Origin: Solirubrobacteraceae bacterium
GTDB taxonomy: Bacteria; Actinomycetota; Thermoleophilia; Solirubrobacterales; Solirubrobacteraceae
Direction of reading: 5' to 3'
NCBI GenBank assembly: GCA_049517155.1
Contig: JBEKSK010000002.1
Location: 1 to 39,165 of the forward strand
Length of the DNA: 39,165 nucleotides
Shown: positions 22,423 through 37,220 of the stretch, in pieces
Numbering within the stretch: the first letter of the stretch is position 1
Layout of the letters: each line of letters starts with the position of its first letter
Notes under the pieces: generated by a model
The model's database searches: none
What the model was told of the DNA's origin: nothing
Seen by the model: the letters and a program-made list of their open reading frames with translations, nothing else
Position numbers and translations under genes: made by a program

Positions 22423-22443
22423 GACATCAGCGTAAAGCAGTAC

Positions 22444-23706
22444 TCAAGGCCGTCGAGGCGATCTTCGCCCGCCTGAGCGGCTCGCCGCGATCGCCGCCGC
22501 CACCTCGGCGAGTGCCTCGAAGTTGTGCCCGCTCACGAGCGCATCGCAATACGGCAGGGCCGCCACCATTCCGCCTGCCGCGACGGAGAATGCGCTCGAG
22601 CTCGCCCGGGGATTGACCCAGACGATCCGGTGGGCGAGGCGCCCCAGTCGCTCCATCTCGCGTCCCACAAGCATCGGGTCGCCGCGCTCCCAGCCGTCGG
22701 AGAGGATCACGACCACGGCGCCACGCGCCATGCCGCGGCGGCCATGACGGTCGTTGAACGCCTTCAGCGCATCGCCAATCCGTGTCCCGCTCGACCAGTC
22801 CGGCGCGGCGGCTGCGGCGCGCTGGATCGCCCGCTCCGGGTTGCGGGATGCCAGCGAGCGCGTCAACCGCGTCAGGCGGGTGGCGAACACGAAGGCCTCG
22901 GCGCCCGGTCCACTGCCCGCCGCGCAGGTCAGGAACTGCAGGTATGCGCGCGCGTAGGGCTCCATCGAACCGGAGATGTCGCACATCATCACGAGGCGTC
23001 GAGGGACCACGCGCCGGCGCCGGCGGGCGAGTCGGATCGGGTCGCCGCCGGTACGCAAGCTGGCGCGCAGGCTCCGGCGCAGGTCGATGCGCTCGCCGTG
23101 ATGCCCCTTCTCGTAGCGGCGGGTGCGCCGCGTCGGAGTGCAGAGCTGCAGCTGGGACATCAGGCGGTAGAGCTGCGCGAGCTCGTTGGGCTCGAGCGCG
23201 TCGAAGCTCTTGCTTCGCAGCAGCTCCGCGTCACTGGCCATCGCCGTGGGCACCTCCACATCGGCCGCGTCATTGTTCTCGCCGAGCGCGCTTGGCGCCG
23301 TGGACGACAGATTCGCTCCGCGGGCGAACGCCTCTGAGCGCGCCGGAACCCCTGTGCGAGCGCTCCTCTCCCGCTCCTGCGCCGGCGTGGCTGCGGTTTG
23401 CACGTCCGCGGCATCTGACCCCAGTTGAGGGCCGTCGCCGCCACCGAACACCGAGCGGAAGACAGCATCAAACGCCCCGGCCTGCGCCGGGTCGGACACC
23501 GCCATGGCGCGCAGCGTCCAGTACAGTCGCCGGCGGGTCACCGGCCGCGCGAGCGTGAGCGCCCGGGCGAGGTCAGCCGCGCGGGCGGGCGTCATCGGGA
23601 CGGCGGCAGCCTGCAGACGGCGGCTGAACGCCCCAACGAGCGCCGGCAGATCGAGCTCGATCATGTCGACCTCTGACGCTGCCGCGGGCGCGGCAGCGTC
23701 AGTCAC
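22444..23706 (-). CDS. coxE: VWA domain-containing CoxE-like protein.
   Basis: RLVMMCDISGSMEPYARAYLQFL (MIDAS DxSxS) preceded by IDLRRSLRASLRTGGDP, typical of CoxE/VWA_CoxE. Confidence 0.8.
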   Translation of the reverse strand: MTDAAAPAAASEVDMIELDLPALVGAFSRRLQAAAVPMTPARAADLARALTLARPVTRRRLYWTLRAMAVSDPAQAGAFDAVFRSVFGGGDGPQLGSDAADVQTAATPAQERERSARTGVPARSEAFARGANLSSTAPSALGENNDAADVEVPTAMASDAELLRSKSFDALEPNELAQLYRLMSQLQLCTPTRRTRRYEKGHHGERIDLRRSLRASLRTGGDPIRLARRRRRVVPRRLVMMCDISGSMEPYARAYLQFLTCAAGSGPGAEAFVFATRLTRLTRSLASRNPERAIQRAAAAAPDWSSGTRIGDALKAFNDRHGRRGMARGAVVVILSDGWERGDPMLVGREMERLGRLAHRIVWVNPRASSSAFSVAAGGMVAALPYCDALVSGHNFEALAEVAAAIAASRSGGRRSPRRP

Positions 23707-24622
23707 CGGCGCGCACGAGCGCTTCGAGGCCAGCGGCGCGGATCACCTCCTGGTCCTCGCCGTATTTGAGCACCGATCCGAGCGTGAGATCCACGGCCGC
23801 GGCGTCCAGGCGCTCGATTCCAAGTAGGTCGAGAGCCGCTAGCCAGTCGATCGCCTCGGCGATGCCGGGCGGCTTCTGCACGTCGCTCTCGCGCATGCGA
23901 GAAACAGCGTTCGCGACCGCCACTGCAAGCGTCTCGGAGGCGCCCCTAACCCGCAGGCGCACGATCGCCACCTCACGCTGCGCACTCGGATAGTCGATCC
24001 AGTGGTAGAGGCAGCGGCGCTTCACGGCGTCGTGCAGGTCGCGCGTGCGGTTGGAGGTCAGGACGATGATCGGTGGGTGCGTCGCCCTGATCGTGCCGAT
24101 CTCGGGAATCGTCACCGCGGCCTCCGCGAGCAACTCGAGCAGAAACGCCTCGAAGTCGTCATCGGCACGGTCGACCTCGTCGATCAAAAGCACGGCTGGC
24201 CGCGGGCCGGGGTGTTCGAGCGCGCGCAGCAACGGGCGCCGGATGAGGTACTCGGAGCCAAACAGCTCCTCCTCGCCGAGCCGCGAGCCGCTCGAATCCG
24301 CAAGCCGAATCGCCAGCAGCTGACGCGGATAGTTCCACTCGTAAAGCGCTTCGGCGGCGTCGATCCCCTCGTAGCACTGCAGGCGGATCAGCGGCGTGTC
24401 CAGCACCCTCGCCAGTGACTTGGCGGCCTCGGTCTTGCCGACCCCTGCCTCGCCCTCGAGCAGCAGCGGCTGCGGCAGTCGCGCGCTCAGAAACATCGAA
24501 GTCGCGAGACCCTCGTCGACCAGATAGTCGACCGCGGCCAGGCGTTGCGTGAGCGTGTCCACGTCCGGCAGCAGCCGGCGCAGCTCTACGTCGGCTTCCC
24601 CCGTGATCTCGGGAGGGTTCAT
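23699..24622 (-). CDS. coxD: MoxR/CoxD-type AAA+ ATPase.
   Basis: Walker A LLLEGEAGVGKTEAAKSLA, Walker B VLLIDEVDRAD, and YEWNYPRQLL. The preferred start is the ATG at 24622. The stop overlaps the coxE start by 8 nt. Confidence 0.8.
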   Translation of the reverse strand: MNPPEITGEADVELRRLLPDVDTLTQRLAAVDYLVDEGLATSMFLSARLPQPLLLEGEAGVGKTEAAKSLARVLDTPLIRLQCYEGIDAAEALYEWNYPRQLLAIRLADSSGSRLGEEELFGSEYLIRRPLLRALEHPGPRPAVLLIDEVDRADDDFEAFLLELLAEAAVTIPEIGTIRATHPPIIVLTSNRTRDLHDAVKRRCLYHWIDYPSAQREVAIVRLRVRGASETLAVAVANAVSRMRESDVQKPPGIAEAIDWLAALDLLGIERLDAAAVDLTLGSVLKYGEDQEVIRAAGLEALVRAGD

Positions 24623-24794
24623 CGGGCGACCGCCGCCGGCGCGCCGGCGCCGGGCCGGAAGCCGAGCACCGCCTGCCCGAGGACCGCCCGGTGGTTGAGG
24701 GCTTTGCGGTCCAGCATCTGAGCGGCCGCGAACGATACTGCTCGAGCGCCGCGACCAACACACCGGACGGCAGCCCGGCTGGGCCCGTGCCGGC

Positions 24795-25184
24795 TCAGGC
24801 GCCCGTGTGAACCATCACCGAGGTGGCTTTCACCGTCGCCGTCGCGGCCATACCCGCGTGCAGCCCGAGCTCCTCGACGGAGTCCCTCGTGATCGCGGCG
24901 GTGATCCGGTGCGGACCGGCCTCGATCTCGACCAGCGCCATCACGCCGGAAACCTCGACAGACGTCACGACACCCGGGAATCGGTTGCGGGCGGAGAGGT
25001 TGCTCCGCGTCGCGTGGCGCTTGGGCGACGCCGAAACGCGATCCACCTCCGTCCGGTCGACCAGGCGGCGGTTTCGCTCGTCGCGAAGCGTCGTGATCTT
25101 CCCGGCTCGGTCCCAGCGGCGCAACGTGTCAACGCTCACACCCAGCGCCTTCGCCGCTTCACCCATCGTCAGAGTCTCCGACAT
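24795..25184 (-). CDS. Molybdate/tungstate-responsive regulator candidate: MerR/excisionase-type HTH fused to a TOBE (Mop) oxyanion-binding domain.
   Basis: From the ATG at 25184: HTH MGEAAKALGVSVDTLRRWDRAGKI. TOBE-like SARNRFPGVVTSVEVSGVMALVEIEAGPHRITAAITRDSVEELGLHAGMAATATVKATSVMV. The upstream 151 codons of the track ORF look non-coding. Confidence 0.75.
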   Translation of the reverse strand: MSETLTMGEAAKALGVSVDTLRRWDRAGKITTLRDERNRRLVDRTEVDRVSASPKRHATRSNLSARNRFPGVVTSVEVSGVMALVEIEAGPHRITAAITRDSVEELGLHAGMAATATVKATSVMVHTGA

Positions 25185-25355
25185 GCGCACGCAAAGCATG
25201 CCAGACCAAGGTGGACGCCGGCGACGCCGCCGGCTCGCGTTCGGTTGCTGCGTTTCGCGCCAAGCCCCAACCGCCTGAGGACTCGCGACCAACGCGCGGC
25301 GTGCCACGGCAAACGCCGGCGCGCGAGAGCTGCGCCGCAATCGAGTTCCGCGGAG

Positions 25356-25446
25356 TGCATATGCAATCGGACAACGAACATCGATCGGCAAGCAACAACG
25401 TCGGCAAAGACTGCGCGCGACCACATATGCAGTGCGCTTATATAGT
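25356..25446. promoter_or_regulatory. AT-rich control region for the tup-like operon: repeated CATATGCA boxes and a TATAGT -10-like hexamer.
   Basis: TGCATATGCA, a perfect 10-bp palindrome, at 25356..25365. CATATGCA again at 25424..25431, 66 bp apart. TCGGCAA direct repeats at 25385 and 25401. TATAGT at 25441..25446, 6 nt before the ATG at 25453. Confidence 0.45.
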
Positions 25447-25452
25447 GGGCCG

Positions 25453-27531
25453 ATGACACGACACAGCAGCCGATTCCCGGGCCGCCTCTGGCGGCCAATA
25501 AACCTTCCCGGTCGCCCTGGCCCTCTGCGCCACCTTCGACCGCTGCCCTTCCTCGTCGTTGCGGTCGTCGCGGCGCAACTGCTCGCCCCGGCGCTCGCGA
25601 GCGCAGACAGCTCCTCGACGCTCACCGTCGTCGGCACGAGCGACGTCAGCGACTCCGGCCTCGTCCCGAATCTGATCCAGCCGGAGTTCCACAGCGCCTA
25701 TCCGCAGTTCTCGTTTCACTACATCGGAACCGCCAGCGGCACCGCGATCACCGACGCCGAAACCGGCTCCGTGGGTGCGAGCGTCCTGATCGTCCACGCC
25801 GCATCACTGGAGAACCAGTTCGTTGCCGGCGGCTACTCCTACGAGCAGTACGGTCGCGCGATCTTCACGAACGACTTCGTGCTCGCCGGACCGACCGGCG
25901 ACCCCGCCGGCGTGTCGGCCGCCGGAGCCACGAACGGATCCAACAACATCGTCCAGGCCTTCGCCGACATCGCGGCGGCCGGATATAACAGCGGCGGCAC
26001 GCCGCTGGTCACGTTCGTGTCTCGAGGCGGTACGCCCGGCACGACCGTCGAGGAGCACCAGATCTGGGCCCTCGTCGCCAGCCTGGCCAGCCCGCCGGCG
26101 GGCCTGCACCTCTGCACCGTCAGCGCTGCCGACGGCGGTGGCGAGACACCCGTGTCGGCGGCGAGTGGCCTCGGTGGCCAGCCCTGCGGCGGACTGCCGC
26201 CCAGCGGGGATCTGCCGACTTGGTATGTGACCACCGGCGTCACGCAGGGCCCGAATGTCGTGGACGCCAACGCCTGCACGGGGTACGCGAGCCCCGCAAA
26301 CTCGTGCTACGTCCTGACCGACCGCGGCACCTACGACTATCTCGCCTCCGGCGCCGATCCCGCTGGCGCGATCCCGACCCTCGCGATCCTGACTCGCAAC
26401 AACAGCACCTCTGCCCCAGGGGGAGCTGATGAGCTGATCAACTACTTTCATTCCTACATCGTCAACCCAGCGAAACCCAGCGAGCAGGTCAACCTGACCG
26501 CCGCCGAGGATTTCGTGAACTTCCTCACCTCTCCCGCGCTCCAGGCGCAGCTGAAGACCTACCTCGACGACACGACCGACCCGGGCGGACCGCCGTTCGT
26601 CGCCGACGCCTCGCCAAGCCTCACCGACGCCGGCATCCCGAGCGTCGATGTCGCGGACACGCCGGTGACCGTGACCGGGACGCTGACGAACGCGGAGCCG
26701 GGCTATCCGGCCCTGGCGAGCCAGACGGTGACGGTTGACGAGATCGAGGCGGGACTGCCGGTGGCAGTCGCCAGCGGGACGACGAACTCGAGCGGCAGCT
26801 ACAGCATCACGTTCACGCCCACCTCGAGCGGCGCATACCAGGTCGCGACGGGCCAGATCGCCCAGGTCGAGAACAGTGCGCTCAGCCCGGTGTTTGGCGA
26901 TCTGCTCTCACCGGCCGCGACCGCCGCGGTCACGATGAGCGTGCAGGGATCGGTGTCGATCGCCTCGGCGTCGGCGCGTGCCGGCATCGTCACCGTCTCA
27001 GGATCGATCGCGCCGGCTGCCCCAGACGCCAACGCGGCGGTCGCGCTGCTGGCGCGCCCGAGCGGCTCGACGAAAAGCTACTCGGAGATCGGCGCGGCGC
27101 CGCTTGTCGCGGGCCAGAGCTCCTACACGATCTCAAGCCCCCTGGCCAAGGGCAGCTGGCAACTCGAGACGAGCTACACCGATCCTGGAGCTCTGCTCGC
27201 CGCAACGGCCACGGGTGAGGTCACCGTCGATAACGCCGGCGGGTCGAGCGTCACCTTGAGCAAGGCCAAGGTCAGCGCCGGGAAGCTCACGCTGACCGGG
27301 ACGATCAGCCCTGATCCGATCGCGACGGGCGCAAGGGTCGAGCTCTTCGGGCTGCGCAGCGGCAGCACGAAGTTCACGAAGCTGGCCGCTGCGACGCTCA
27401 AGATCGACCAGACGACGTTCACGATCAAAGCCAAGCTGAGGCGTGGATATCACTGGATACTGCAGCTTGAATACGTCCAGACAGGGCAGCGCACGAGCTA
27501 TTCGAAGCTCAGCACGATCGACGTACACTAG
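25453..27531 (+). CDS. tupA: TupA-family (tungstate/molybdate-type) periplasmic-binding-protein domain fused to three C-terminal beta-sandwich-like repeats. Secreted, no lipobox.
   Basis: The PBP part matches the TupA layout: LTVVGTSDVSDSGLVPNLIQPEF, IGTASGTA, LIVHAASLENQFVAGG, TNDFVLAGPTGDPAGV, FVSRGGTPGTTVEEHQIW, WYVTTG, YVLTDRGTYDYL, LINYFHSYIVNP. The C-terminal ~300 aa form repeats (VTVTGTL.., IVTVSGSIAP..GSTKSY.., KLTLTGTISP..GSTKFT..). Signal peptide ...LLAPALASA. An alternative GTG start is at 25432. Confidence 0.75.
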   Translation: MTRHSSRFPGRLWRPINLPGRPGPLRHLRPLPFLVVAVVAAQLLAPALASADSSSTLTVVGTSDVSDSGLVPNLIQPEFHSAYPQFSFHYIGTASGTAITDAETGSVGASVLIVHAASLENQFVAGGYSYEQYGRAIFTNDFVLAGPTGDPAGVSAAGATNGSNNIVQAFADIAAAGYNSGGTPLVTFVSRGGTPGTTVEEHQIWALVASLASPPAGLHLCTVSAADGGGETPVSAASGLGGQPCGGLPPSGDLPTWYVTTGVTQGPNVVDANACTGYASPANSCYVLTDRGTYDYLASGADPAGAIPTLAILTRNNSTSAPGGADELINYFHSYIVNPAKPSEQVNLTAAEDFVNFLTSPALQAQLKTYLDDTTDPGGPPFVADASPSLTDAGIPSVDVADTPVTVTGTLTNAEPGYPALASQTVTVDEIEAGLPVAVASGTTNSSGSYSITFTPTSSGAYQVATGQIAQVENSALSPVFGDLLSPAATAAVTMSVQGSVSIASASARAGIVTVSGSIAPAAPDANAAVALLARPSGSTKSYSEIGAAPLVAGQSSYTISSPLAKGSWQLETSYTDPGALLAATATGEVTVDNAGGSSVTLSKAKVSAGKLTLTGTISPDPIATGARVELFGLRSGSTKFTKLAAATLKIDQTTFTIKAKLRRGYHWILQLEYVQTGQRTSYSKLSTIDVH

Positions 27532-27536
27532 GCCGC

Positions 27537-29132
27537 GTGACGCCCCGGCGAACTCGTGTGAACAGACAGCGCCGGACCGCCAGCCGCCGTCTCGGGATCC
27601 TGCCCGGGCGGCGCTTGGCGGTGCTCATCGTGCTCGCGGCGGGGCTGCTCGGATGCCTGGCGAGCGCAGCTTCGGCAGACGAGTCGATCGCGACGGCGAT
27701 CATCGTCAAGCCCGGTGAGCAATCCCCAAGCGAAGTGGCGCCGGTGTCTCTCTCGACGCTCCTGGCTACACCCGCCTGCGTGCCCTATTCCAACACCACC
27801 AGCACGCTCACCACCGTCGCCCCCTCCAGCAGCCAGTCGCTCACCACCTCGAGCGACACGTGGCCGATCTACACGATTCTGGCGTGCGGCCTGGGCCAGA
27901 CGCTGAGCGCCGGTGATTGGGTGCAGATACAGGACCCCTCGACCGGGCCTGAGGCGCCACTTTTCTACTCAGCCGGTGACCTGACGACCCCGAGCGACTT
28001 CCAGGACCCCGGGCAGGTCCCTCTGATCATCGCCGAGCCGGGCGAGAACGTCCTGCAGTACTACCGGCCGCAGCGACGGCCCGACGGCGGCGTGACCGAC
28101 GAGAACGCGTACGACTTCTTCCAGGTCAACCCCGGACCGATCACGATCTGGGTCGACGAGGGCGGATCTCCGCCCCTTTCGGTCGCGATTACCGGGGTTC
28201 CCGCCGGCGGCGTCACGGCGGGGGCAACCGTGAGCCTCACGGCCGCGGAGAATCCGAACGGCGCAACCCTCCCGGATCCGGCGAATCTCAGCTACAGCTG
28301 GACCAGCAACGACAGCGTCCAGTTCAGCAACGACGGCGCCGGGCAGGCCGTGCAAGCGACGCTCGGGGCCGCCGGCGAAGCCGAGGTCACAGTCGAGGTG
28401 CAAGACAACCAGGACGGCACCTTCGGATTCGCCAACGCAAGGATCACCGTCGGAGCACCCGGATCCGACGCGACATCTGCGACCCCCAACTCCTCCAACG
28501 GCCAGACGTCGCAGACATCCGCCCCTGCGACCGGCCCCAAGCAGAGCAACGGCAGCGCGACCGGCGGAACCGCGGAGCCCCGCCACCACAGCGCTCCCGT
28601 CGCACCGGGCGCCGGCAGCGGACAGAGCAGCGGCGCTCCCGCCACCGCCAAACCGAGGCCTGCTCCCAAGAGCGAATCCGCGCCAAGCAGCGCGACGACC
28701 GGGGCCTCCTCCACGAAAGCAGCCCCGACCGACTCCGGGCACCCGGCGCCGTCAAGCTCTCCGCAAGCGGTGAGCGGCTCCGCCGGCGCGGCGGCCCACG
28801 CCTCGCAGCCCCCTGGTCACGCCGCCCGGCCCAGCGCACGCCTCACGAGGCCGCCCACCGCTTCGCCCACCCACATGGCCGCAACAACACGCCAGGCACG
28901 GGTCACGGGACGGCTGATCGAAGGCGTGACGGTGCTCCCGGCCGCCGCGAGCCCGCTCGTCTACGCAGTCCCGCCGACAATCGCGACGGCAGCGCCTGTG
29001 CGCCGCGGCGCGGTCGCCTCCGCCCTCCCCGCGCTCGCCGCTGGACTCGTCGTGACCCTGCTCTTCAGCCTGGGCGCCGGGCGCGAGCTGCGCTGGCGAC
29101 GGCGCCTGGGCGCGCGGCTGCACGGAAGCTGA
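27537..29132 (+). CDS. Surface protein of unknown function: signal peptide, globular region with a PKD/Ig-like segment, ~140-aa Pro/Ser/Ala/Gly-rich spacer, C-terminal TM anchor with a basic tail.
   Basis: Signal peptide RRLAVLIVLAAGLLGCLASAASA. Ig-like segment SVAITGVPAGGVTAGATVSLTAAENP...EVTVEVQD. Low complexity spans about 28450..28890. C-terminus LPALAAGLVVTLLFSLGAGRELRWRRRLGARLHGS. It starts 6 nt after the tupA-like stop. Confidence 0.7.
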   Translation: MTPRRTRVNRQRRTASRRLGILPGRRLAVLIVLAAGLLGCLASAASADESIATAIIVKPGEQSPSEVAPVSLSTLLATPACVPYSNTTSTLTTVAPSSSQSLTTSSDTWPIYTILACGLGQTLSAGDWVQIQDPSTGPEAPLFYSAGDLTTPSDFQDPGQVPLIIAEPGENVLQYYRPQRRPDGGVTDENAYDFFQVNPGPITIWVDEGGSPPLSVAITGVPAGGVTAGATVSLTAAENPNGATLPDPANLSYSWTSNDSVQFSNDGAGQAVQATLGAAGEAEVTVEVQDNQDGTFGFANARITVGAPGSDATSATPNSSNGQTSQTSAPATGPKQSNGSATGGTAEPRHHSAPVAPGAGSGQSSGAPATAKPRPAPKSESAPSSATTGASSTKAAPTDSGHPAPSSSPQAVSGSAGAAAHASQPPGHAARPSARLTRPPTASPTHMAATTRQARVTGRLIEGVTVLPAAASPLVYAVPPTIATAAPVRRGAVASALPALAAGLVVTLLFSLGAGRELRWRRRLGARLHGS

Positions 29133-29161: not shown

Positions 29162-29833
29162 ATGCGTTCACTTTCCCCGATCCTCGCACTGAGCTCGCAC
29201 GACATCGACGAGGCGATCTTCCACGTCGCGAGCGTGCTCGAGGTGCCCGTGCTGATCCTCGCGCTGCTCGCCCTCGCCATGGTGATCCTCGAACTCGGAA
29301 GCTTCGTGATCGAGTTGCGGCGCCGGCGACGGCGCCGTTTCACGGCCCTCTCGAGTGGAGCCGAGCGGGCGCGGGAGGCGCTCGCGATCGACGATCGCCG
29401 GGGCGCCGCGGCGGCGCTGCACGGACTCGCGCGCAGCGCGGCGATGGCCGACACGCTGGCGTTCATCGCCGCTCACGCGCGCCGGGACGGGAGCGACTAC
29501 GAGCTCAACAAGGCGCTCGCCGACTTCGACTTCAGCTCGCGACGACGGCTCGACCGCACCCGGCTGCTCGTCCGCGTCGGACCGGCGCTCGGCCTGATGG
29601 GAACGCTCATCCCGCTCTCGCCCGCGCTCACCGGGCTCGCCAACGGCAACACCTCGACGCTCAGCAACGACCTGCGTCTGGCCTTCAGCGTCACCGTCGT
29701 CGGACTGATGATCGGCGCGATCGCGTTCGGACTCTCGCTCACGCGCGACCGCATGTACGGGCAGGACCTCTCCGACCTCGAATACGTGGCCGCCGCCATC
29801 AGCGATCCGCCGGCGCCGGTGAGCACACGATGA
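29162..29833 (+). CDS. MotA/TolQ/ExbB family proton-channel protein.
   Basis: Three TM segments in the ExbB arrangement (TM1, long cytoplasmic loop, TM2-TM3). Family motif RVGPALGLMGTLIPLSPAL...LAFSVTVVGLMIGAIAFGLSL. The stop overlaps the next start (ATGA at 29830..29833). Confidence 0.75.
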   Translation: MRSLSPILALSSHDIDEAIFHVASVLEVPVLILALLALAMVILELGSFVIELRRRRRRRFTALSSGAERAREALAIDDRRGAAAALHGLARSAAMADTLAFIAAHARRDGSDYELNKALADFDFSSRRRLDRTRLLVRVGPALGLMGTLIPLSPALTGLANGNTSTLSNDLRLAFSVTVVGLMIGAIAFGLSLTRDRMYGQDLSDLEYVAAAISDPPAPVSTR

Positions 29834-30165
29834 TCTCGGTCACCCCGCACGCCCGCAACCGCGAGGACCGAGCCGGCGACCCGCTCGACGGCCTTGTCAA
29901 CCTGTTCGATCTGGGGATCGTCCTCGCCGTCGCGTTTCTGCTGGCGGCGCTCTCCTCCCTGCATCTGGCCGGCACGATCACCAGTCACGGCCTCCACGCC
30001 ACGCCGGCCAAGATCATCGTGGTCCAGCCGGGCCAGACCGTCGCGCCGCTGCCGAAGCCCGGAACGCGCACGATCGGCCGGGGCACTCAGGCCGGCATTG
30101 TCTACCGCCTCGCCAACGGAGAGCTCGTGTACGTCCAGGCGGCGCCGCGCAAAAAGAGCCGCTGA
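29830..30165 (+). CDS. ExbD/TolR-like single-pass membrane protein. From memory it resembles the DUF2149 type.
   Basis: 111 aa. DPLDGLVNLFDLGIVLAVAFLLAAL carries an Asp at the start of the TM helix (codon 29908..29910), as in ExbD/TolR/MotB. A small extracytoplasmic domain follows. The stop TGA at 30163..30165 is followed directly by the GTG start of the first permease. Confidence 0.6.
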   Translation: MISVTPHARNREDRAGDPLDGLVNLFDLGIVLAVAFLLAALSSLHLAGTITSHGLHATPAKIIVVQPGQTVAPLPKPGTRTIGRGTQAGIVYRLANGELVYVQAAPRKKSR

Positions 30166-30891
30166 GTGGCCTATCTCTGGCACGAGCTGCGCAGCGCGGT
30201 CCCGCTGATCGTGAGCGGGAACGCCTACATCCTCGCCGTCACCTGGGTCACGATCCGTGTGGCCGTGGTGTCCACCGCCGCGGCGCTCGTGATCGGCCTG
30301 CCGATCGGGCTCACGCTCGGCCTCGGGCGTTTCCGCGGCCGACGCGCGCTGCACATCCTCGCCAATGCAAGCCTCGCGCTGCCACCCGTGATCGTCGGCG
30401 TTGGGGTCCTTTTGCTGCTGCTCCCAGCCGGGGCGTTCGGCTCGCTGCGGATCGAGTTCACGCTGCGCGGCGTGTACGTCGCGCAAACAATTCTCGCCCT
30501 CCCCTACATCGTTGCTCTCACCCCGGCTGCGATCCAGGCGCTACCGCCCGGCCTGCTCGCGCAGGCGCGGCTGCTCGGCGCCGGGCGCCGCCAGCTCGCG
30601 CTGCTAGCGCTGCGCGAGGCCAAGATCGGCGTGTTCGCGGCCGTGATCGCCGCCCTCGGCGCAGCGCTCTCCGAGGTCGGCGCAGTGGTCATCGTCGGCG
30701 CGAACATCGCAGGTCACGACCAGACGCTCGCCAGCGCGGTGCTCGCGCAGATCAACGACTACGCGAACTATCCCTACGCCCTGGCGATCGGCCTCGTGCT
30801 GCTCGCACTCATCCTCGTGCTGGTCGGCCTGCTCACGGTGCTCCAGCAACGCACAAGCGGAATCCAGCTGCGCTTCCGGGGACTGCCTTGA
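30166..30891 (+). CDS. tupB: ABC transporter permease, TupB-like (paralogue 1).
   Basis: Six-TM permease with the EAA-loop region LLGAGRRQLALLALREAKIGVFAAVIAALGAALSEVGAVVIVGANIAGHDQTLASAVL. Confidence 0.8.
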   Translation: MAYLWHELRSAVPLIVSGNAYILAVTWVTIRVAVVSTAAALVIGLPIGLTLGLGRFRGRRALHILANASLALPPVIVGVGVLLLLLPAGAFGSLRIEFTLRGVYVAQTILALPYIVALTPAAIQALPPGLLAQARLLGAGRRQLALLALREAKIGVFAAVIAALGAALSEVGAVVIVGANIAGHDQTLASAVLAQINDYANYPYALAIGLVLLALILVLVGLLTVLQQRTSGIQLRFRGLP

Positions 30892-30951
30892 CGCGGGCCC
30901 GCCGGCGCACAATCGCGCGGGCGCGCCGCTCGCCGCCGACCGCCCCGGCGT

Positions 30952-30976
30952 CGCCCGGGCACCACCCGCCCGGGCG
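30952..30976 (+). other. Intercistronic GC hairpin between the two permease genes.
   Basis: CGCCCGGGC-ACCACCC-GCCCGGGCG: a 9-bp perfect stem and 7-nt loop ending 14 nt before the tupB2 ATG. No U-tract. Confidence 0.4.
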
Positions 30977-30990
30977 GCAGGATCCTTGAC

Positions 30991-31713
30991 ATGCACCTGC
31001 TGTGGGAGGAGCTTCGCAGTGCCGTGCCGCTCATCGTGCACGGGAACCCCTACCTGCTGAGCATCGTCTCCTTCACCGTCGAGGTCGCCGCGATCGCGAC
31101 GGCGGCTGCGGCCTTAATCGGACTGCCGATCGGCCTCGCGATCGGGCTCGGGCGCTTCCGCGGCAGACACGCGCTGCACGTGCTGGCCAACGCGAGCCTA
31201 GGCCTGCCACCCGTGCTGGTCGGGCTGTTTCTGTTCCTCATCCTCGTGCCGCAGGGCCCGCTCGGCTCGCTGCATCTGCTCATCACCAAGCAGGCCGTGT
31301 TCATCGCGCAGACGATCCTCGCTCTCCCCTACGTCGTCGCGCTCACCGCAGCGGCGATCCAGGGGCTCCCGCAGGGGCTCCTGTCGCAGGCGCGCGTGCT
31401 CGGCGCCGGCCGCCGCCAGCTCGCCACACTCGCGCTGCGCGAAGCGAGAATCGGTGTGATGGCCGCGCTGATCGCGGCGCTTGGGTCCGCACTGTCGGAG
31501 GTCGGCGCGATCGTCATCGTCGGCGGCAACGTGTACGGCTTCGACCAGACTCTCGCGAGTGCCGCGCTGTATGAGGCAAACGCAGCCCGCTACGACGACG
31601 CCGTAGCAATCGGGATTGTCCTGATCGCGCTGATCCTGGTCCTGATGTGCGCCGTCGGCGTGCTTCAGCAGCAGGGCGCGGGCATCCGCCTGCGCTTTCG
31701 GTCGGCGTCGTGA
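30991..31713 (+). CDS. tupB: ABC transporter permease, TupB-like (paralogue 2).
   Basis: Collinear with paralogue 1 over its full length and, by eye, identical at well over half of positions (LWEELRSAVPLIVHGNPY.., LIGLPIGLAIGLGRFRGRHALHVLANASLGLPPV.., LGAGRRQLATLALREARIG.., SEVGAIVIVGGNVYGFDQTLASAAL). Confidence 0.8.
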   Translation: MHLLWEELRSAVPLIVHGNPYLLSIVSFTVEVAAIATAAAALIGLPIGLAIGLGRFRGRHALHVLANASLGLPPVLVGLFLFLILVPQGPLGSLHLLITKQAVFIAQTILALPYVVALTAAAIQGLPQGLLSQARVLGAGRRQLATLALREARIGVMAALIAALGSALSEVGAIVIVGGNVYGFDQTLASAALYEANAARYDDAVAIGIVLIALILVLMCAVGVLQQQGAGIRLRFRSAS

Positions 31714-32678
31714 GCGAAAAGCAGTCCCACGCGAATGCGGCGCTGTTGCGCTGCGAGAACCTGAGCGTGTGCCGCGGCGCGCGCGAGGTCGTCACCGACG
31801 TCAGCCTGGAGCTTCGCGCCGGCGAGCTGGTCGCCCTGCTCGGGCCCAACGGCGCCGGCAAGAGCACGCTGCTCGACGCGCTCGCCGGTGTGCTGGCGCC
31901 CGCGCAGGGGCGGGTCGAGCGCGCCGGCCGCGTCGCGATCGCGCTCCAGGCGCCCGATCTCGCGCGCCGCACCGTCCTCGCGAATGTGATGCTTGCGCTC
32001 GGCTGGTGGGGTGTCCCCGGCCACGAGCGCGAGGATCGCGCGCGCGCCGCGCTGCGAGCGCTGGGCGGCGAGCACCTCGCCCAGCGCCAGGCTGCGAGCC
32101 TCTCCGGCGGCGAGCGCCGTCGCGTGCACCTGGCTCGCGCGATCGCCGTGCGCCCCGACGTCCTGATGCTTGACGAGCCCTTCGGCGGCCTCGACACCGA
32201 GACGCGGGCGACGCTCCTCGACGACGCGGTCGGCGCACTGCGCTCGCAGGCCAGAGCAACCCTCGTCGTCGTCCACGACCGCAGCGAGGCATGGGCGCTC
32301 GCCGACCGCCTGCTGATCCTGATCGGTGGCCGGCTCGTCGCGGAAGGCACCCCACGCGACCTGCTGGAGCGACCCCCGAGCGCGCTCGTCGCCCGCTTCC
32401 TGGGGTTTGACGGATCGCTGCAGGACGGCGGCGAGTTGCTGTTGACGAGACCTGCTCACGTCGCGCTCGACCCGGCCGGCCCGCTGCGCGCCCGCGTCAC
32501 GCGAGCCGTCGCGCTGGAGGACGGCGTGCGCCTCGAACTCGAGCTCGACAGCGGACGGCTCTACACCGTGGCGCCGCTGCCTGCTCCCCGGCCGAGTGAC
32601 ACCGTGCGTGTGCGCATCGACGGCGGCGCCCGCTTCGCCCGCAGCGTGACAGACGACGGCGCGGCGCCCAGTCCTTAG
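31710..32678 (+). CDS. tupC: ABC transporter ATP-binding protein with a C-terminal TOBE-like domain (TupC-like).
   Basis: Walker A LLGPNGAGKSTLLD, signature LSGGERRRVHLARA, Walker B VLMLDEPFGGLD. The GTG start at 31710 overlaps the permease stop (GTGA). The track ORF begins earlier, at 31647, inside tupB2. Confidence 0.8.
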   Translation: MSEKQSHANAALLRCENLSVCRGAREVVTDVSLELRAGELVALLGPNGAGKSTLLDALAGVLAPAQGRVERAGRVAIALQAPDLARRTVLANVMLALGWWGVPGHEREDRARAALRALGGEHLAQRQAASLSGGERRRVHLARAIAVRPDVLMLDEPFGGLDTETRATLLDDAVGALRSQARATLVVVHDRSEAWALADRLLILIGGRLVAEGTPRDLLERPPSALVARFLGFDGSLQDGGELLLTRPAHVALDPAGPLRARVTRAVALEDGVRLELELDSGRLYTVAPLPAPRPSDTVRVRIDGGARFARSVTDDGAAPSP

Positions 32679-33244
32679 CCGGCGCTGGCGCCCGCGCCGA
32701 CCGTGGCGCCCGGTGTCGCGCAGGAGCGAAGGCCGTAGGTCGCCGCATCGGCGCCGACCGGGCTCACCCGCAGCGCAGCTTCGGCGCTCGCCACCCCGCC
32801 GCTATCGCCTCGCTTCGCGGCCGCCGCGAGGTCGGTGTACTCGCCAACCGCCCGGGCGAGCGCCCGGAGGTAGCGCCCGAGTGCGGCACGCTCGCTCGCC
32901 TTCTCGCTGGGACGTCGCAGCGCCCGAAGCGAACCCGACTCCGCGCGCACGAACGGCAGCGCATCGGCCAGGTAGCCCGCGAGCCCCCGCAGCTTCTGCG
33001 CCGCGGAGTCGCCCGAATCCGGCGGCGCGATCAAGCGCACCTTGCGCACCGTACTCGCACAGATCGCATTGGCGCGAGCGGTGAAGTCAGCCTTCGTGTA
33101 GCTGCCGCAGCCGCACAGGAGCACGGCGAGCGCGATCACGGCAAGGGCTCGTCCGGCGTGGCGCACACGGCTCGAGCATGGAGCCAGCCGCGCAACTCGC
33201 GCCGGTGCCGGCCCGGCGCCTGGCCACAAGCGCCAACCGCTCAC
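32675..33244 (-). CDS. Putative lipoprotein of unknown function.
   Basis: Lipobox-like LAVLLCGCGS after a hydrophobic stretch. The true start is probably internal (VRHAGRALAVIAL...). It is the last gene of the moa operon, and its stop codon overlaps the tupC stop convergently. Confidence 0.55.
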   Translation of the reverse strand: MSGWRLWPGAGPAPARVARLAPCSSRVRHAGRALAVIALAVLLCGCGSYTKADFTARANAICASTVRKVRLIAPPDSGDSAAQKLRGLAGYLADALPFVRAESGSLRALRRPSEKASERAALGRYLRALARAVGEYTDLAAAAKRGDSGGVASAEAALRVSPVGADAATYGLRSCATPGATVGAGASAG

Positions 33245-33247
33245 CTG

Positions 33248-33727
33248 CTAGTGCTCGCTGCGCACATCCGCCATCAGCGCCACGGCGTGCGGCAGCGCAT
33301 CGGCAATCGCCGCGGCGGCCTGCTCGATCGACCGCGGCGAGCCGGGGAAGTTGATGATCAGCGTCGCGCCGCGAATGCCCGCCACGCCCCGCGAGAGCAG
33401 CCAGTGCTTGGTGTGCGCCCGCGACGCTTCGCGCATCGCCTCGGCGATACCCGGCACCTCACGTTCGATCACGCTCCGTGTCGCCTCCGGCGTGACATCG
33501 CGCGGGGCGACGCCGGTACCGCCGGTCGTCAGCACCAGCGCGCATTGATCGACGTCGCTGAGGTGGCGCAGCCGCCCCGCGATCATCCCCAGCTCGTCGG
33601 AGATCACCTCGCGCGCGACGACCTCGCCGCCGATGCCCACGGCGAACTGCTCGAGGCGATCGCCGCTCTCGTCGCCGCCCACTCCCGCCGCCCGCGACGT
33701 GCTGACCGTGATGATCGCCACACGCAC
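33248..33727 (-). CDS. moaB: MoaB/MogA family molybdenum cofactor biosynthesis protein.
   Basis: MRVAIITVSTSRAAG...DQCALVLTTGGTGVAPRDVTPEAT...PGSPRS, the canonical MoCF_biosynth domain. Confidence 0.85.
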   Translation of the reverse strand: MRVAIITVSTSRAAGVGGDESGDRLEQFAVGIGGEVVAREVISDELGMIAGRLRHLSDVDQCALVLTTGGTGVAPRDVTPEATRSVIEREVPGIAEAMREASRAHTKHWLLSRGVAGIRGATLIINFPGSPRSIEQAAAAIADALPHAVALMADVRSEH

Positions 33728-33729
33728 GC

Positions 33730-34218
33730 TCAGCCGCCTTCTTCCAGGCGCCAGTCGTTGCGCCCACCGGTCTTCTCGAGCAGCACGACCTGCTCGACCG
33801 CCACCCCGCGCTCGAGTCCCTTGACCATGTCGTAGACGGTCAGCGCGGCGACACTACAGGCGACCATCGCCTCCATCTCGACGCCGGTGGCAGCCGACAC
33901 GGACACCTCGGAGATCAGCTCGACGAGGCCGCCCTCAACGTCCACCCCCGCGCGAACGTCGACGAAGCTGAGCGCGATCGGGTGTGCGAGCGGAATCAGC
34001 GCCGCGGTCTGCTTGGCCGCCATGATCCCGGCGAGCCTGGCGGTGCCCAGCACCTCCCCCTTCGCCACGTTGCCGGCGACGATCGCCGCGGCCGTCTCGC
34101 GCGACATGCGAACTCGCGCGCGGGCGCGCGCGCGACGTTCGCTCACCGGCTTGGAGCCGACGTCGACCATCCGGGCGTTGCCGTCAGCGTCGAGGTGCGT
34201 GAGGCGCGCGCCACTCAT
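33730..34218 (-). CDS. moaC: Cyclic pyranopterin monophosphate synthase accessory protein MoaC.
   Basis: LTHLDADGNARMVDVGSKPVSERRA...LIPLAHP...TGVEMEAM...ALTVYDM.K. The ATG overlaps the upstream stop (ATGA at 34215..34218). Confidence 0.9.
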   Translation of the reverse strand: MSGARLTHLDADGNARMVDVGSKPVSERRARARARVRMSRETAAAIVAGNVAKGEVLGTARLAGIMAAKQTAALIPLAHPIALSFVDVRAGVDVEGGLVELISEVSVSAATGVEMEAMVACSVAALTVYDMVKGLERGVAVEQVVLLEKTGGRNDWRLEEGG

Positions 34219-34892
34219 GTGCCCGCCGCGTCCGCCGGCAGCGCGACTGCCTCGCCCGCCACCCAGCGCACCTCGCCGCCGTCCAGCTCCCGCTTCCAGA
34301 TCGGTGCCTCCGCCTTGATCCGGTCGATCAGCTCACGCGCACCCGCGAAGGCGGCATCGCGGTGTGCCGCCGAGACCGCCACGACGACGCCCGGCTCCCC
34401 CAGCGCAACGCGCCCCACGCGGTGCTCGGCGGCCGCTGCCGCCAGGCCATGGCGGTGCACGCACTCCGCCGCGATCGCCGCCATGCGCTGCTCGGCCATT
34501 TCGCGATAGGCCTCATAGTCGAGAAACTCGACGTCGCGAACGGTGCCCTCGAAGGTGACGACGGCCCCGGCGCCGGGCCGGCGCACAAGCGCGGTGACAT
34601 CCGCGGGCGTGATCGGGGTCTCGCTGACGCGTACATCCGGGCCCGCGCCGCCGCTGACCGGTGGCAGCAGGGCAAGCTCGTCGCCCGCGTGCAGCGGTGT
34701 GTCCTCCCCGACCAGCTCGCGGTTGACGGCCATCCGCACCGGCAGCCGCTCGAGCAGATCGGCGAGCCGCGAGTCCTGCGCGAGCGCCGCCAGCGCGTCG
34801 CCCACGGTCGCCCCGTCAGCCAGCTCCGCCTCGATCGCGTCGGCTCCCGCGCGCTCACGCAGCTGGGCGAAAAGTCGTATCCGCAAGATCAT
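34215..34892 (-). CDS. moaDE: Fused molybdopterin synthase: MoaD (sulfur carrier) plus MoaE (catalytic subunit).
   Basis: The first ~81 aa are MoaD-like and end in ...LALLPPVSGG. A MoaE-like region follows directly (GAVVTFEGTVRD...EYEAYREMAE...VAVSAAHRDAAF...IDRIKAEAPIWK). Confidence 0.8.
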   Translation of the reverse strand: MILRIRLFAQLRERAGADAIEAELADGATVGDALAALAQDSRLADLLERLPVRMAVNRELVGEDTPLHAGDELALLPPVSGGAGPDVRVSETPITPADVTALVRRPGAGAVVTFEGTVRDVEFLDYEAYREMAEQRMAAIAAECVHRHGLAAAAAEHRVGRVALGEPGVVVAVSAAHRDAAFAGARELIDRIKAEAPIWKRELDGGEVRWVAGEAVALPADAAGT

Positions 34893-34956
34893 GACCGGCT
34901 CAGCCTACCCCGCCGCCGCCCGCGGCTCGCCGAGGTCGCCCTGTTATCTTCGCGTG

Positions 34957-35955
34957 ATGGCGGGAGGGGCGCAACTCACGGACGGCCACGGACGCGCGAT
35001 CGGCGATCTGCGCCTCTCGGTGACCGACCGCTGCGGCTTCCGCTGCCGCTACTGCATGCCGGCCGAGGGCATGCAGTGGCTCGAACGCGCGGAGCTTCTG
35101 AGCTTCGAGGAGATCGAGCGCCTCGTGCGCGTGCTGGTCGAGATGGGCGTACGCGATGTCCGCCTCACCGGCGGCGAACCGCTCCTGCGCCGCGAGCTGC
35201 CCCGCCTGGTCGCGATGCTGGCGGCGATCCCCGGGCTGAACGAGCTCGCGCTCACGACCAACGGCTACCAGCTCGAGCGCGACGCCCACGCACTGGTTCA
35301 CGCGGGCATTACGCGCTTCAACGTCTCCGTCGACTCACTCCAGCGCGAGCGCTTCAGCGAGATCACCCGCCGCGACGCGCTGGACAAGGTCCTGCGCGGC
35401 CTTGCGACGCTCGCCTCTTTCCCGCAGGCGCACCCGATCAAGGTCAACGCCGTCGCGATGCGCGGCTTCACCGAGACGGAGCTGATCCCTTTCGCCCGCT
35501 TCGCCCGCGAGCACCCCTACGAGGTCCGCTTCATCGAATTCATGCCGCTCGACGCCGACCACGCCTGGACGCCCGACGACGTGCTGAGCGGCGAGGAGAT
35601 CCGCGCGGCGATCCACGCCGTCTACCCACTCGAGCCCGAACCCCGCACGCCCAGCGCGACCTCACGAACCTTCCGCTTCGCGGACGGCCGTGGCCGGATC
35701 GGCTTCATCAACCCGGTTTCCGAGCCCTTCTGCGGCGACTGCAACAGGATCCGCGTGACCGCCGACGGCCAGCTGCGCACGTGCCTTTTCTCGCTGCGCG
35801 AAACGGACCTGCGCGCGGTGCTGCGCGGCGCTGGCGGCGACGACGAACTCGCGGCCGTACTGCGCGACGCCGTCTGGCGCAAGGAGCTCAAGCACCACAT
35901 CGGCGATCCGGGCTTCGTGCAGCCCGACCGCACGATGTCGGCCATCGGCGGCTGA
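34957..35955 (+). CDS. moaA: GTP 3',8-cyclase MoaA (radical SAM).
   Basis: From the ATG at 34957: DLRLSVTDRCGFRCRYCMP (CxxxCxxC), VRLTGGEPLLRR, and C-terminal FCGDCNRIRVTADGQLRTCLF. The upstream 138 codons of the track ORF overlap moaDE antisense. Confidence 0.9.
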   Translation: MAGGAQLTDGHGRAIGDLRLSVTDRCGFRCRYCMPAEGMQWLERAELLSFEEIERLVRVLVEMGVRDVRLTGGEPLLRRELPRLVAMLAAIPGLNELALTTNGYQLERDAHALVHAGITRFNVSVDSLQRERFSEITRRDALDKVLRGLATLASFPQAHPIKVNAVAMRGFTETELIPFARFAREHPYEVRFIEFMPLDADHAWTPDDVLSGEEIRAAIHAVYPLEPEPRTPSATSRTFRFADGRGRIGFINPVSEPFCGDCNRIRVTADGQLRTCLFSLRETDLRAVLRGAGGDDELAAVLRDAVWRKELKHHIGDPGFVQPDRTMSAIGG

Positions 35956-35957
35956 TG

Positions 35958-35987
35958 GGGTGAGTGGGTGCGGTGCACCCCTCACCC
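35958..35987. terminator. Strong hairpin between convergent moaA and moeA.
   Basis: GGGTGAG-T-GGGTGC-GGT-GCACCC-CTCACCC: 13 bp in total with a one-nt bulge and a triloop, beginning 3 nt after the moaA stop. No U-tract. Confidence 0.5.
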
Positions 35988-36023
35988 ATGCACCTCGCGC
36001 CTGACCTGACAGCGGTGGCGCTC

Positions 36024-37220
36024 TCAGAGCAGTTCGATCGTCACCTGCTCGCCGGCCGCGAGCACACCAGCGCCGGCCGGGATCAGCGCCAGCGCGTCGG
36101 CGCCCAGCATCGACGTGAGGATGTGGGAGTCCTGCGCGCCGGTCGGCGTCACATGCCAGCCGTCAGGGCGCAGCGCGAGCCGACAGCGGACCGCCTCGAC
36201 GCGCGCCGGCGTGCGCCGGCAAGCCTGATCGAGCGTCGCGACCGTCCGCCGGCGCTCCGGCGGCTCGCCGGCGAGCGCCTGCAGCGCCGGCCGCACGAAC
36301 AGCAGGAAGGTGACGAGCGACGACACGGGGTTGCCCGGCAGGCCGAACACGAGCGTCCGTTCGCGGCTGCCGAACCAGAACGGCTTGCCCGGCCGCAGCG
36401 CCACGCCCGCGAAGTGTCGCTGCACCCGCAGGCCGTCGAGAACCTCGGCCACGTGATCGTGAACACCGACTGACATTCCGCCCGTGATCACCACCGCGTC
36501 GGCCGAGAGCGCCGCAGCGATCGCCTCGCGGATCAGCGCCACCTCGTCACGGGCGTGCACGACGGAGGCGACCTGCGCGCCGGCCCGCTCGGCGAGTGCG
36601 GGGATCACGAACGCGCTCGAGTCGCGCACTGAACCGGGCGGCGGCTGCTCGTCCACGGCGACCAGCTCGTCGCCGGTGGTGACGACCGCGACGCGCGGGC
36701 GCGCTCCGGCCGACACGACCGGGCGGCCGATCGAGGCGAGCACGCCAAGCGCCGCGGGGCCGAGCCGCACACCCGGCTCGAGCACCGTCTCCCCCGCTCG
36801 CACGTCATCGCCCGCCCTGCGCACAAAGCGTCCCGCCTCGACGCCGGCCAGAAGCTCGACCGAGCTTGCGTGGCGGCGCGTCTGCTCGACTGGAACGACC
36901 GCGTCGGCGCCCGCCGGGATCGCCGCGCCGGTCGAGATCGCGCACGCCTCGCCCGCCGCGAGCACCACCGCGGACGGCGCGCCCGCCCGTGACTCAGCGA
37001 CGATCTCCAGGCGGGCCCCGGCGCCGCTGTCGGCGGCCCGGACCGCGAAGCCGTCCATCGCCGAGTTATCGAAGGCCGGCACATCTTCGGGCGCCCGGAC
37101 CTCCTCGGCCAGCACCCGCCCGAGCGCCTCGCCGAGCGCCACGCTCTGGGGCGCAAGCGGCTGCGCATGCTCGAGCACGAGGGCGCGTGCGTGCTCGAAC
37201 TCGGTCAGCTTCGTGGTCAC
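36024..37220 (-). CDS. moeA: Molybdopterin molybdotransferase MoeA.
   Basis: [39 protein letters not shown], and the PGNPVSS-type segment [16 protein letters not shown] start. Confidence 0.9.

Follow-up and report, generated by a model that had tools for sequence, protein, structure and literature searches.

Results

An ExbB-like/DUF2149 gene pair in an importer operon

The DNA analysed here, called the window throughout, is a stretch of 39,165 nucleotides from a Solirubrobacteraceae bacterium, a soil actinobacterium (assembly GCA_049517155.1, contig JBEKSK010000002.1, positions 1 to 39,165 of the forward strand). On its + strand it carries a seven-gene operon, the cassette for an ATP-binding cassette (ABC) importer of the molybdate/tungstate type, and two of these genes encode an ExbB-like protein and a DUF2149 protein. 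The genes of the operon code, in order, for a TupA-like binding protein, a 531-aa surface protein, the ExbB-like protein, the DUF2149 protein, permease 1, permease 2 and an ABC ATPase. The ExbB-like gene (29162..29833, +) specifies a stator A-subunit of 223 aa with three transmembrane (TM) helices, assigned from PF01618, an AlphaFold model and Foldseek. The DUF2149 gene (29830..30165, +) specifies the presumed B-subunit, of 111 aa, assigned from PF09919 and a structure model. The two genes overlap by ATGA and are translationally coupled, and the stop codon of the DUF2149 gene directly abuts the GTG start codon of the permease 1 gene.

The closest DUF2149 proteins and loci were from metagenome-assembled genomes of Solirubrobacteraceae and Solirubrobacterales (lineage Actinomycetota, Thermoleophilia). 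The Solirubrobacterales are described as Gram-positive, and the reading of the host as monoderm rests on this lineage. An initial annotation, made from the sequence alone, had proposed an ExbB/ExbD-like pair at this position and had suggested that DUF2149 proteins pair with MotA/ExbB homologues. The pair does consist of a MotA/ExbB homologue and a DUF2149 protein; the setting in an ABC importer operon and the existing annotation of the same pairing as HmuU/HmuV had been missed. The suggestion agrees with the literature, where the DUF2149 proteins of methanogens (arCOG03208), given there as uncharacterised, have a link to TolQ (PMC9425974).

The ExbB-like protein

The hydropathy profile of the ExbB-like protein has TM1 at residues ~25-50 and a loop at residues 53-135, followed by TM2 and TM3. 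The Arg-rich run ELRRRRRRRF lies after TM1, and the family motif GPALGLMGTL...VVGLMIGAIAFG is also present; both open reading frames (ORFs) of the pair, the ExbB topology and these two motifs were therefore found as first described. The protein matched PF01618 (MotA_ExbB) with an E-value of 5e-8 and 33.2 bits, above the cut-off of 22.9. It was modelled by AlphaFold with a pLDDT of 83, and all 50 matches listed by Foldseek for this model were ExbB, TolQ, MotA or PomA chains, which are the A-subunits of 5:2 stators. The best match was ExbB 5sv0 (probability 1.0, TM-score 0.54), and the alignments to ExbB extended over the full length (208-231 columns, TM-scores of 0.5-0.59). The modelled protein thus shows the ExbB fold, with a sizeable helical domain on the cytoplasmic side between TM1 and the hairpin of TM2 and TM3. 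A plain sequence search of the PDB with the same protein returned nothing relevant and only the fold comparison recovered ExbB, indicating that the subfamily is divergent. Alignment with hhalign, in which the match was weak and short, placed GLMGT148 on GLFGT148 of ExbB and SVT178 on LAT181 of ExbB. The two threonines, Thr148 and Thr178, are encoded at nt 29603-29605 and nt 29693-29695, respectively, and belong to TM2/TM3.

The DUF2149 protein

The second ORF of the pair matched PF09919 with an E-value of 5.6e-14 and 52.7 bits (cut-off 27.1), and the same profile was matched by all 54 aligned DUF2149 relatives. The protein is single-pass with a cytoplasmic N-terminus, and its AlphaFold model consists of one TM helix (aa 18-43) and a short helix, together with a sheet of three strands (ectodomain aa 71-103). 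Asp27 is encoded by the GAT codon at 29908-29910. The segment LFD27LGIVLAVAFLL was aligned by hhalign with FID25VMLVLLIIFM of ExbD and with LLD23VLLVLLLIF of TolR, at a low probability because the aligned segments are short. Within that limit, the alignment agrees with the register that had been claimed for this residue, that of ExbD D25 and TolR D23.

The label 'ExbD-like' did not hold as a family assignment. None of the 54 DUF2149 proteins matched PF02472 (ExbD), even at E<=10, and the ectodomain of the model (~60 aa, three strands) had no match in the PDB with an E-value below 2 when searched with Foldseek; the label therefore expresses an analogy and not family membership. A search of PDB sequences with the DUF2149 profile found neither ExbD nor TolR, and an OmpA-like peptidoglycan-binding domain was not found on the DUF2149 B-subunit. 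Judged by its position, topology and Asp register, the protein would be a subunit of ExbD/TolR type without being a member of that family. DUF2149 was not found in a plasmid search. The ectodomain region (query residues 35-106) was matched in 11 separate stretches of a protein of 2009 aa (P0262), so that the small beta domain of DUF2149 may also occur, repeated in tandem, within a giant protein.

The tail-anchored protein encoded upstream

A further claim of the initial annotation was that the pair has no recognisable partner. No TonB, TolA or peptidoglycan-binding domain is indeed present in the window, as none of the window ORFs scanned contained a TonB_C, OmpA/MotB or ExbD domain, and a TonB-dependent receptor was likewise absent. 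The claim stands only for a literal TonB, as the adjoining upstream gene (27537..29132, +) encodes a 531-aa tail-anchored surface protein with what looks like a TonB layout in mirror image, in which an ectodomain is joined by a Pro/Ser-rich linker to a TM helix at the C-terminus. This protein, recognised by hydropathy and by PKD domains in its homologues, is the candidate force-receiving partner of the pair.

The N-terminus of the 531-aa protein (aa 1-47) is a signal resembling those of the twin-arginine translocation (Tat) pathway, PGRRFAL...AxA followed by D. Its RR and AxA motifs are conserved among the relatives and Cys40 is not; with Cys40 present in only 8/56 relatives, the possibility that the protein is a lipoprotein was rejected. 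The ectodomain, PKD-type in the homologues, is joined to the membrane by a linker at ~aa 310-460 composed of 65-70% Pro/Ser/Thr/Ala/Gly, including 10-17% Pro. A conserved juxtamembrane segment (461-480) precedes the C-terminal TM helix (~aa 497-516, nt 29025-29084), which is followed by the tail GRELRWRRR (GRELRGRR in the family). In an alignment of 56 sequences, residues 501-522 were the best conserved stretch (20-aa window) of this otherwise fast-evolving protein. L509 and G513 were conserved in 100% of the sequences and E517 in 98%, and the conservation score of the linker was 0.22-0.45.

An ELRGRR-type motif at the cytoplasmic face occurs in both the ExbB-like protein, after TM1 (29306-29335; consensus ELRGRRRRRF), and the tail of the 531-aa protein (29082-29105; RELRWRRR, consensus RELRGRR). 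This common motif could be due to chance in an Arg-rich proteome or could be a docking feature.

Conservation of the cassette

The cassette genes were counted by tblastn with the window proteins on 83 related loci. The genome scan supplied the best 80 of 569 matching species, all of them Solirubrobacterales, and a wider sample was taken from a metagenome scan. The seven-gene cassette was kept across about 80 Solirubrobacterales species (the best 80 of 569). The ExbB-like protein was matched in 82 of the 83 loci, each permease in 81, the ATPase in 79 and the binding protein in 74, and an upstream protein with a C-terminal TM was present in 70/83. Homologues of the regulator with a Mop domain that is divergent from the operon adjoined the cassette in 41/83 loci. 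The Moa genes that occur near the cassette in the window were never adjacent to it in the relatives, which argues that the cassette forms a unit of its own, irrespective of the genes around it.

The highest median identity to the window proteins within the cassette was that of DUF2149 (80.6%), compared with 73.5% for the ExbB-like protein, about 70-73% for the permeases, 72.7% for the ATPase, 51.8% for the binding protein and 32.5% for the 531-aa protein. Asp27 was invariant across the related loci (83/83) and was retained by at least 90% of the 54 diverse DUF2149 members; Thr148 and Thr178 were invariant in 80/80 loci. With the Pfam scores, the conservation in the related loci places the pair far beyond chance. 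The invariance of Asp27 also argues for the working ion pathway, rather than a relic, that had been proposed at the outset.

One Solirubrobacteraceae locus (L082, 7104-9330) retains the PKD tail-anchored protein, the ExbB-like protein and DUF2149 but has neither the binding protein nor ABC genes, which points to these three genes as the core unit. The three-gene set in this locus adjoins a gene for a GGDEF-EAL protein.

The binding protein, the permeases and the substrate

The first gene of the operon (25432..27531, +; translation probably begins at the ATG at 25453) encodes a secreted TupA-like binding protein of 699 aa. A TupA-like PBP domain was located at ~aa 60-368 (PBP_like_2, E 1.5e-12), followed at the C-terminus by an Ig-like extension of ~330 aa with weak Big_13 matches. 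The only hydrophobic segment of the protein is N-terminal and the protein has no membrane anchor. The nearest solved structures were those of the tungstate-binding TupA, 3lr1 (E 1.5e-12) and 5my5. The Ig-like tail was considered as a paralogue of the ectodomain of the 531-aa protein, and this was dropped as BLASTP detected no similarity between the two.

Permease 1 (30166..30891, +) and its paralogue permease 2 (30991..31713, +) are both TupB/ModB-like. Permease 1 matched BPD_transp_1, and its score for NF038017 was 147 bits (cut-off 100) compared with 97 bits for TupB (cut-off 320); the scores of permease 2 were 169 and 120 bits for the same two profiles and cut-offs. The spacer between the two permease genes (30892-30990) is GC-rich and 99 bp long, and has ~10 bases in the relatives. 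The ABC ATPase (31647..32678, +) was identified by ABC_tran (E 6.7e-29), with a weak C-terminal TOBE_2 match (E 0.004). Its start codon is probably the GTG at 31710, overlapping the stop codon of permease 2 (GTGA).

The substrate of the importer would be an oxyanion, most likely molybdate or tungstate. This assignment is based on the nearest TupA structures, the TupB/ModB-like permeases, the adjacent Mop regulator and a window rich in genes for the Mo cofactor.

ExbB-like/DUF2149 pairs in other contexts

The wider context of the pair was surveyed in 80 diverse metagenomic loci, and context genes were counted over about 94 loci. Several representatives, on contigs too short to reveal their neighbours, contributed no context. 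An ExbB-like gene directly preceded DUF2149 in 70/80 of the metagenomic loci. The ORF upstream of the ExbB-like gene had a C-terminal hydrophobic segment in 46/50 metagenomic cases vs 38/271 background ORFs. Thirty-four such upstream ORFs comprised 13 alpha/alpha-toroid proteins, 8 DUF2162 proteins and 1 CobN, the remainder being small multi-TM proteins. Among the about 94 loci, 29 had CobN-like genes and 28 had toroid genes, and TupB-like permeases were found outside the Solirubrobacterales in a single one (L137).

Several of these loci illustrate the arrangement. In L084 the ExbB-like gene, with DUF2149 behind it, follows genes for a TonB-dependent receptor and then for a CobN-like protein that has a TM helix at its C-terminus. 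An alpha/alpha-toroid (Prenyltrans/SQHop-like) protein with a C-terminal TM occupies the position before the pair in L087, L089 and L098, and a protein that has both a Pro/Thr linker and a hydrophobic segment at its C-terminus does so in L094. In two of the toroid loci (L087, 1-681, and L098, 183-908) the toroid protein is itself preceded by a multi-TM protein weakly matching the S components of energy-coupling factor transporters, and the toroid protein of L087 has a faint match to eukaryotic cobalamin-binding proteins. These features hint at vitamin or corrinoid uptake in the toroid contexts. The HmuS protein of Bacteroides thetaiotaomicron has predicted TM helices at both ends (PMC12583661).

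Regulatory region and neighbouring genes

A divergent regulator gene (24795..25185, -) precedes the operon and encodes a protein with an excisionase-type helix-turn-helix and a Mop (molybdate-binding TOBE) domain, with TOBE and MerR matches in Pfam. The NCBIfam model TIGR00638 (Mop) was matched with 60.3 bits, the cut-off being 55 bits. The start of the gene was placed at 25185 by homology and by an ATG (CAT at 25183-25185), within a listed ORF that extends to 25637. In the divergent promoter region (25359-25450), two CATATGCA boxes lie 66 bp apart, in a genome with 70% GC, and a CTTATATAG element lies immediately before the likely ATG of the binding protein at 25453. CATATG or TATATA elements occur at the corresponding place in 29/71 related loci. 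These boxes may represent an operator for the Mop regulator or a -10 element. An inverted repeat was looked for in this region and none was found, and an Rfam scan of the window gave no family, including the Moco riboswitch.

Downstream of the operon, a gene on the opposite strand (32675..33244, -) encodes a lipoprotein-like protein (189 aa) outside any known family; Pfam, NCBIfam and PDB searches gave no match. This gene accompanies the cassette, on either side, in 68/83 loci, and its product may be an unrecognised component of the system. The cassette of the window is flanked at 20694-24763 and 33248-37220 by genes for Mo-cofactor biosynthesis and molybdoenzyme maturation (MobA-like, XdhC, a MadC/CoxE-like VWA protein, a MadB/CoxD-like AAA protein, MoaB, MoaC, a MoaD-MoaE fusion, MoaA and MoeA), a neighbourhood that the relatives do not share.

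Two further features of the window lie away from the cassette. A Hydantoinase_B/oxoprolinase gene is split over two overlapping ORFs on the - strand (2435-3948), with ORF 3160-3948 corresponding to positions 1-192 and ORF 2435-3259 to positions 247-518 of the Hydantoinase_B profile; a frameshift, a pseudogene or an error of assembly could account for the split. Genes for iron handling, a rubrerythrin-VIT1 fusion and a ferritin-like protein, are also located on the - strand (7708-8871 and 16596-17084).

Discussion

A proposed proton motor acting through a tail-anchored surface protein

The interpretation that we favour, with a probability of about 50%, is that the pair is a functional proton motor of the ExbB-ExbD type which works via the tail anchor of the 531-aa surface protein and so helps the importer encoded with it to take up molybdate or tungstate. 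The two proteins of the pair would form a proton-driven membrane motor resembling the 5:2 stator of ExbB-ExbD, with a presumed 5:2 stoichiometry. Protons would travel via Asp27 of DUF2149 and Thr148 and Thr178 of the ExbB-like protein, and their flow would drive a motion of the ExbB-like ring relative to the DUF2149 dimer. In place of TonB, the motor would engage, by a presumed contact, the C-terminal TM helix of the 531-aa protein. This partner is predicted to be Tat-exported and tail-anchored, and its linker of ~150 Pro/Ser-rich residues would be able to span a Gram-positive wall. Force or torque along the linker would then act on the PKD-type ectodomain, and the action of the ectodomain might aid the capture of the oxyanion or its hand-over from the unanchored TupA-like binding protein to the ABC importer, this being the purpose that we presume for the force.

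The proposal that the pair is a motor-type complex is supported by the family matches, the ExbB fold, the Asp and Thr registers, the invariant residues and the ATGA overlap. The choice of the partner TM helix as the target of the motor is based on its being the best conserved segment of the partner, on the strict synteny and on the tail-anchored upstream proteins in other DUF2149 contexts.

Several points weigh against this interpretation. No experiment on a DUF2149 protein is known from the literature. The hhalign matches on which the residue registers depend are short and weak, with probabilities of 5-28%. DUF2149 has no recognisable ExbD ectodomain or peptidoglycan-binding domain, so there is no evident means by which the stator would be held still. 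ABC importers do not normally need a second energy source, and there is no sign of why one would be required here. The binding protein scored 43.9 bits for the NCBIfam TupA model, far under the equivalog cut-off of 400, and the permeases also fell below the TupB equivalog cut-off, which leaves the substrate uncertain. Some of the upstream ORFs counted in the 46/50 are small multi-TM proteins (DUF2162 or HmuT-like), and in loci of the CobN type such a DUF2162/HmuT-like protein sits between CobN and the ExbB-like gene; a tail-anchored partner immediately upstream is therefore not universal.

It is also conceivable, if unlikely, that the direct target of the motor is the ABC importer or the binding protein that serves it, with the proton gradient providing gating or a faster hand-over and the PKD protein being unrelated and merely co-transcribed. 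The pair adjoins the permease genes in nearly all Solirubrobacterales loci, with its stop codon abutting the permease start, and a second ABC-embedded arrangement exists in L137; both points are in favour of this reading. The L082 locus, however, keeps the PKD protein and the pair in the absence of ABC genes, and outside the Solirubrobacterales the pair is found with ABC genes in only 1 of about 94 loci. Elsewhere the pair regularly follows a membrane-anchored extracytoplasmic protein, and the TM helix, rather than any other part, is the best conserved segment of the partner. The same constant C-terminus, attached to highly variable ectodomains, could be read in another way, as the conserved segment, hydrophobic helix and Arg-rich tail resemble C-terminal sorting signals. 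The pair would then be a device for the assembly, retention or turnover of the tail-anchored protein, with the C-terminal helix and basic tail as the sorting signal. We consider this improbable, since no sortase- or exosortase-type motif is present, the cassette encodes no processing enzyme, and in various lineages the pair lies beside systems for uptake or (de)chelatase systems, which suggests a part in nutrient acquisition. To our knowledge, no motor of the ExbB type is known to serve in sorting.

Two readings are left. Substrate occupancy might be reported across the envelope to a regulator, as in TonB-FecA-FecR, in keeping with the gene for an extracytoplasmic function (ECF) sigma factor upstream of the cassette in L001 and with the Mop regulator adjacent to the cassette in about half of the loci. 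Such signalling has a very low probability: no ECF sigma factor was seen in the window and no anti-sigma domain in the cassette, and a Mop regulator, from the properties of its domain family, can sense cytoplasmic molybdate on its own. Lastly, a functionless vestige of a lost Ton system is scarcely to be expected here. Incomplete Ton systems in Actinobacteria have been called 'likely non-functional' (PMC12204202), and the window does lack TonB and a receptor. Against this, D27, T148 and T178 are invariant, the identities of DUF2149 and the ExbB-like protein exceed those of the transporter subunits, the gene order and the translational coupling are fixed, and the B-subunit is a DUF2149 protein and not ExbD. 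The invariant residues, high identities and fixed synteny together strongly disfavour a relic, and the strong conservation of the pair contradicts the assumption that incomplete Ton systems of monoderm Actinobacteria are non-functional (PMC12204202).

Wider implications

A broader proposal, which we advance tentatively and with less confidence than the motor acting through the tail anchor, is that ExbB-like/DUF2149 complexes constitute a separate and widespread class of 5:2 proton motors that operates without TonB or an outer membrane. Motors of this class would grip the C-terminal TM of their effectors to perform work on the outer side of the membrane, where ATP is not to be had, and in the Solirubrobacterales one would have been built into a Mo/W ABC importer. 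If so, CobN-type heme dechelatases, alpha/alpha-toroid binding proteins and PKD-type surface proteins would be among the effectors, and the Solirubrobacterales importer would draw energy from the proton gradient as well as from ATP. Motors of the ExbB type have been understood almost solely as energisers of the outer membrane, and the present case is a pair under strong constraint that belongs to a Gram-positive lineage and is tied to a nutrient importer. The recurrence of a tail-anchored protein upstream suggests what the target of such motors may be, and this suggestion would hold as well for HmuU/HmuV of the abundant gut Bacteroidota and for DUF2149-TolQ of the methanogens. Confirmation would mean that the 5:2 motors include a new family of B-subunits and a new, mirror-image geometry of coupling.

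Comparison with known systems

The closest known counterpart is found in the heme operons hmuYRSTUV of the Bacteroidota, those of Porphyromonas, Prevotella and Bacteroides, where the pairing of a MotA/TolQ/ExbB protein with DUF2149 has already been annotated as HmuU/HmuV. The two Pfam families and the order of their genes are the same as in the window pair, and a Hmu-type relative (P0264), which adjoins a TonB-dependent receptor and a CobN-like gene, was reached by phmmer from a window protein. HmuT, HmuU and HmuV are still uncharacterised, and HmuV is said to have no homology to any known family (PMC12094164, PMC13227078). Unlike the hmu operons, the cassette and the window contain neither CobN/HmuS nor HmuT/DUF2162, and they lack a TonB-dependent receptor and, by lineage, an outer membrane; the window pair is instead flanked by the PKD-type tail-anchored protein and a TupABC-like importer. 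The archaeal arCOG03208 proteins show the same family pairing, with TolQ. The DUF2162-type neighbours seen in metagenomic loci are absent from the window.

ExbB-ExbD-TonB shares with the window pair the ExbB fold over the full length, a single-pass subunit with its N-terminus inside and an Asp at the register of ExbD D25, and a linker-bearing third protein encoded alongside. It differs in that DUF2149 is outside the ExbD family and has no ExbD periplasmic domain, and the 531-aa protein, unlike TonB, is anchored at its C-terminus, lacks a TonB_C domain and contains no His within the TM helix. Nor does the window offer an outer-membrane receptor on which to pull. The resemblance to TolQ-TolR lies in the TolQ chains among the Foldseek matches and in the alignment of D27 with D23 of TolR, whereas TolA, TolB and Pal are missing and the host is monoderm by lineage. 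With MotA-MotB and PomA-PomB, the pair has in common the principle of a TM Asp, and PomA and MotA were among the top structural matches. The flagellar stators are distinguished by the OmpA-like peptidoglycan-binding domain that DUF2149 lacks, and there are no flagellar genes nearby. The A-subunit of the window has three TM helices, as does ExbB, and unlike MotA, which has four. The Zorya (ZorAB) defence motor was also considered and was rejected, as the pair and its partner had no PADLOC match.

The importer itself corresponds to TupABC/ModABC in having a binding protein, two permeases and an ATPase of the same superfamily. It departs from TupABC in its scores, which are below the equivalog cut-offs, in a binding protein that bears the Ig-like extension and no lipid anchor, and in the insertion of the motor pair and the surface protein into the operon. 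The literature searched contained no report of an ExbB/DUF2149 pair within an operon for molybdate or tungstate. The pairing of the two families is thus already known, and what is new is its context, embedded in an ABC importer operon, and the candidate geometry by which the motor may be coupled to its partner.

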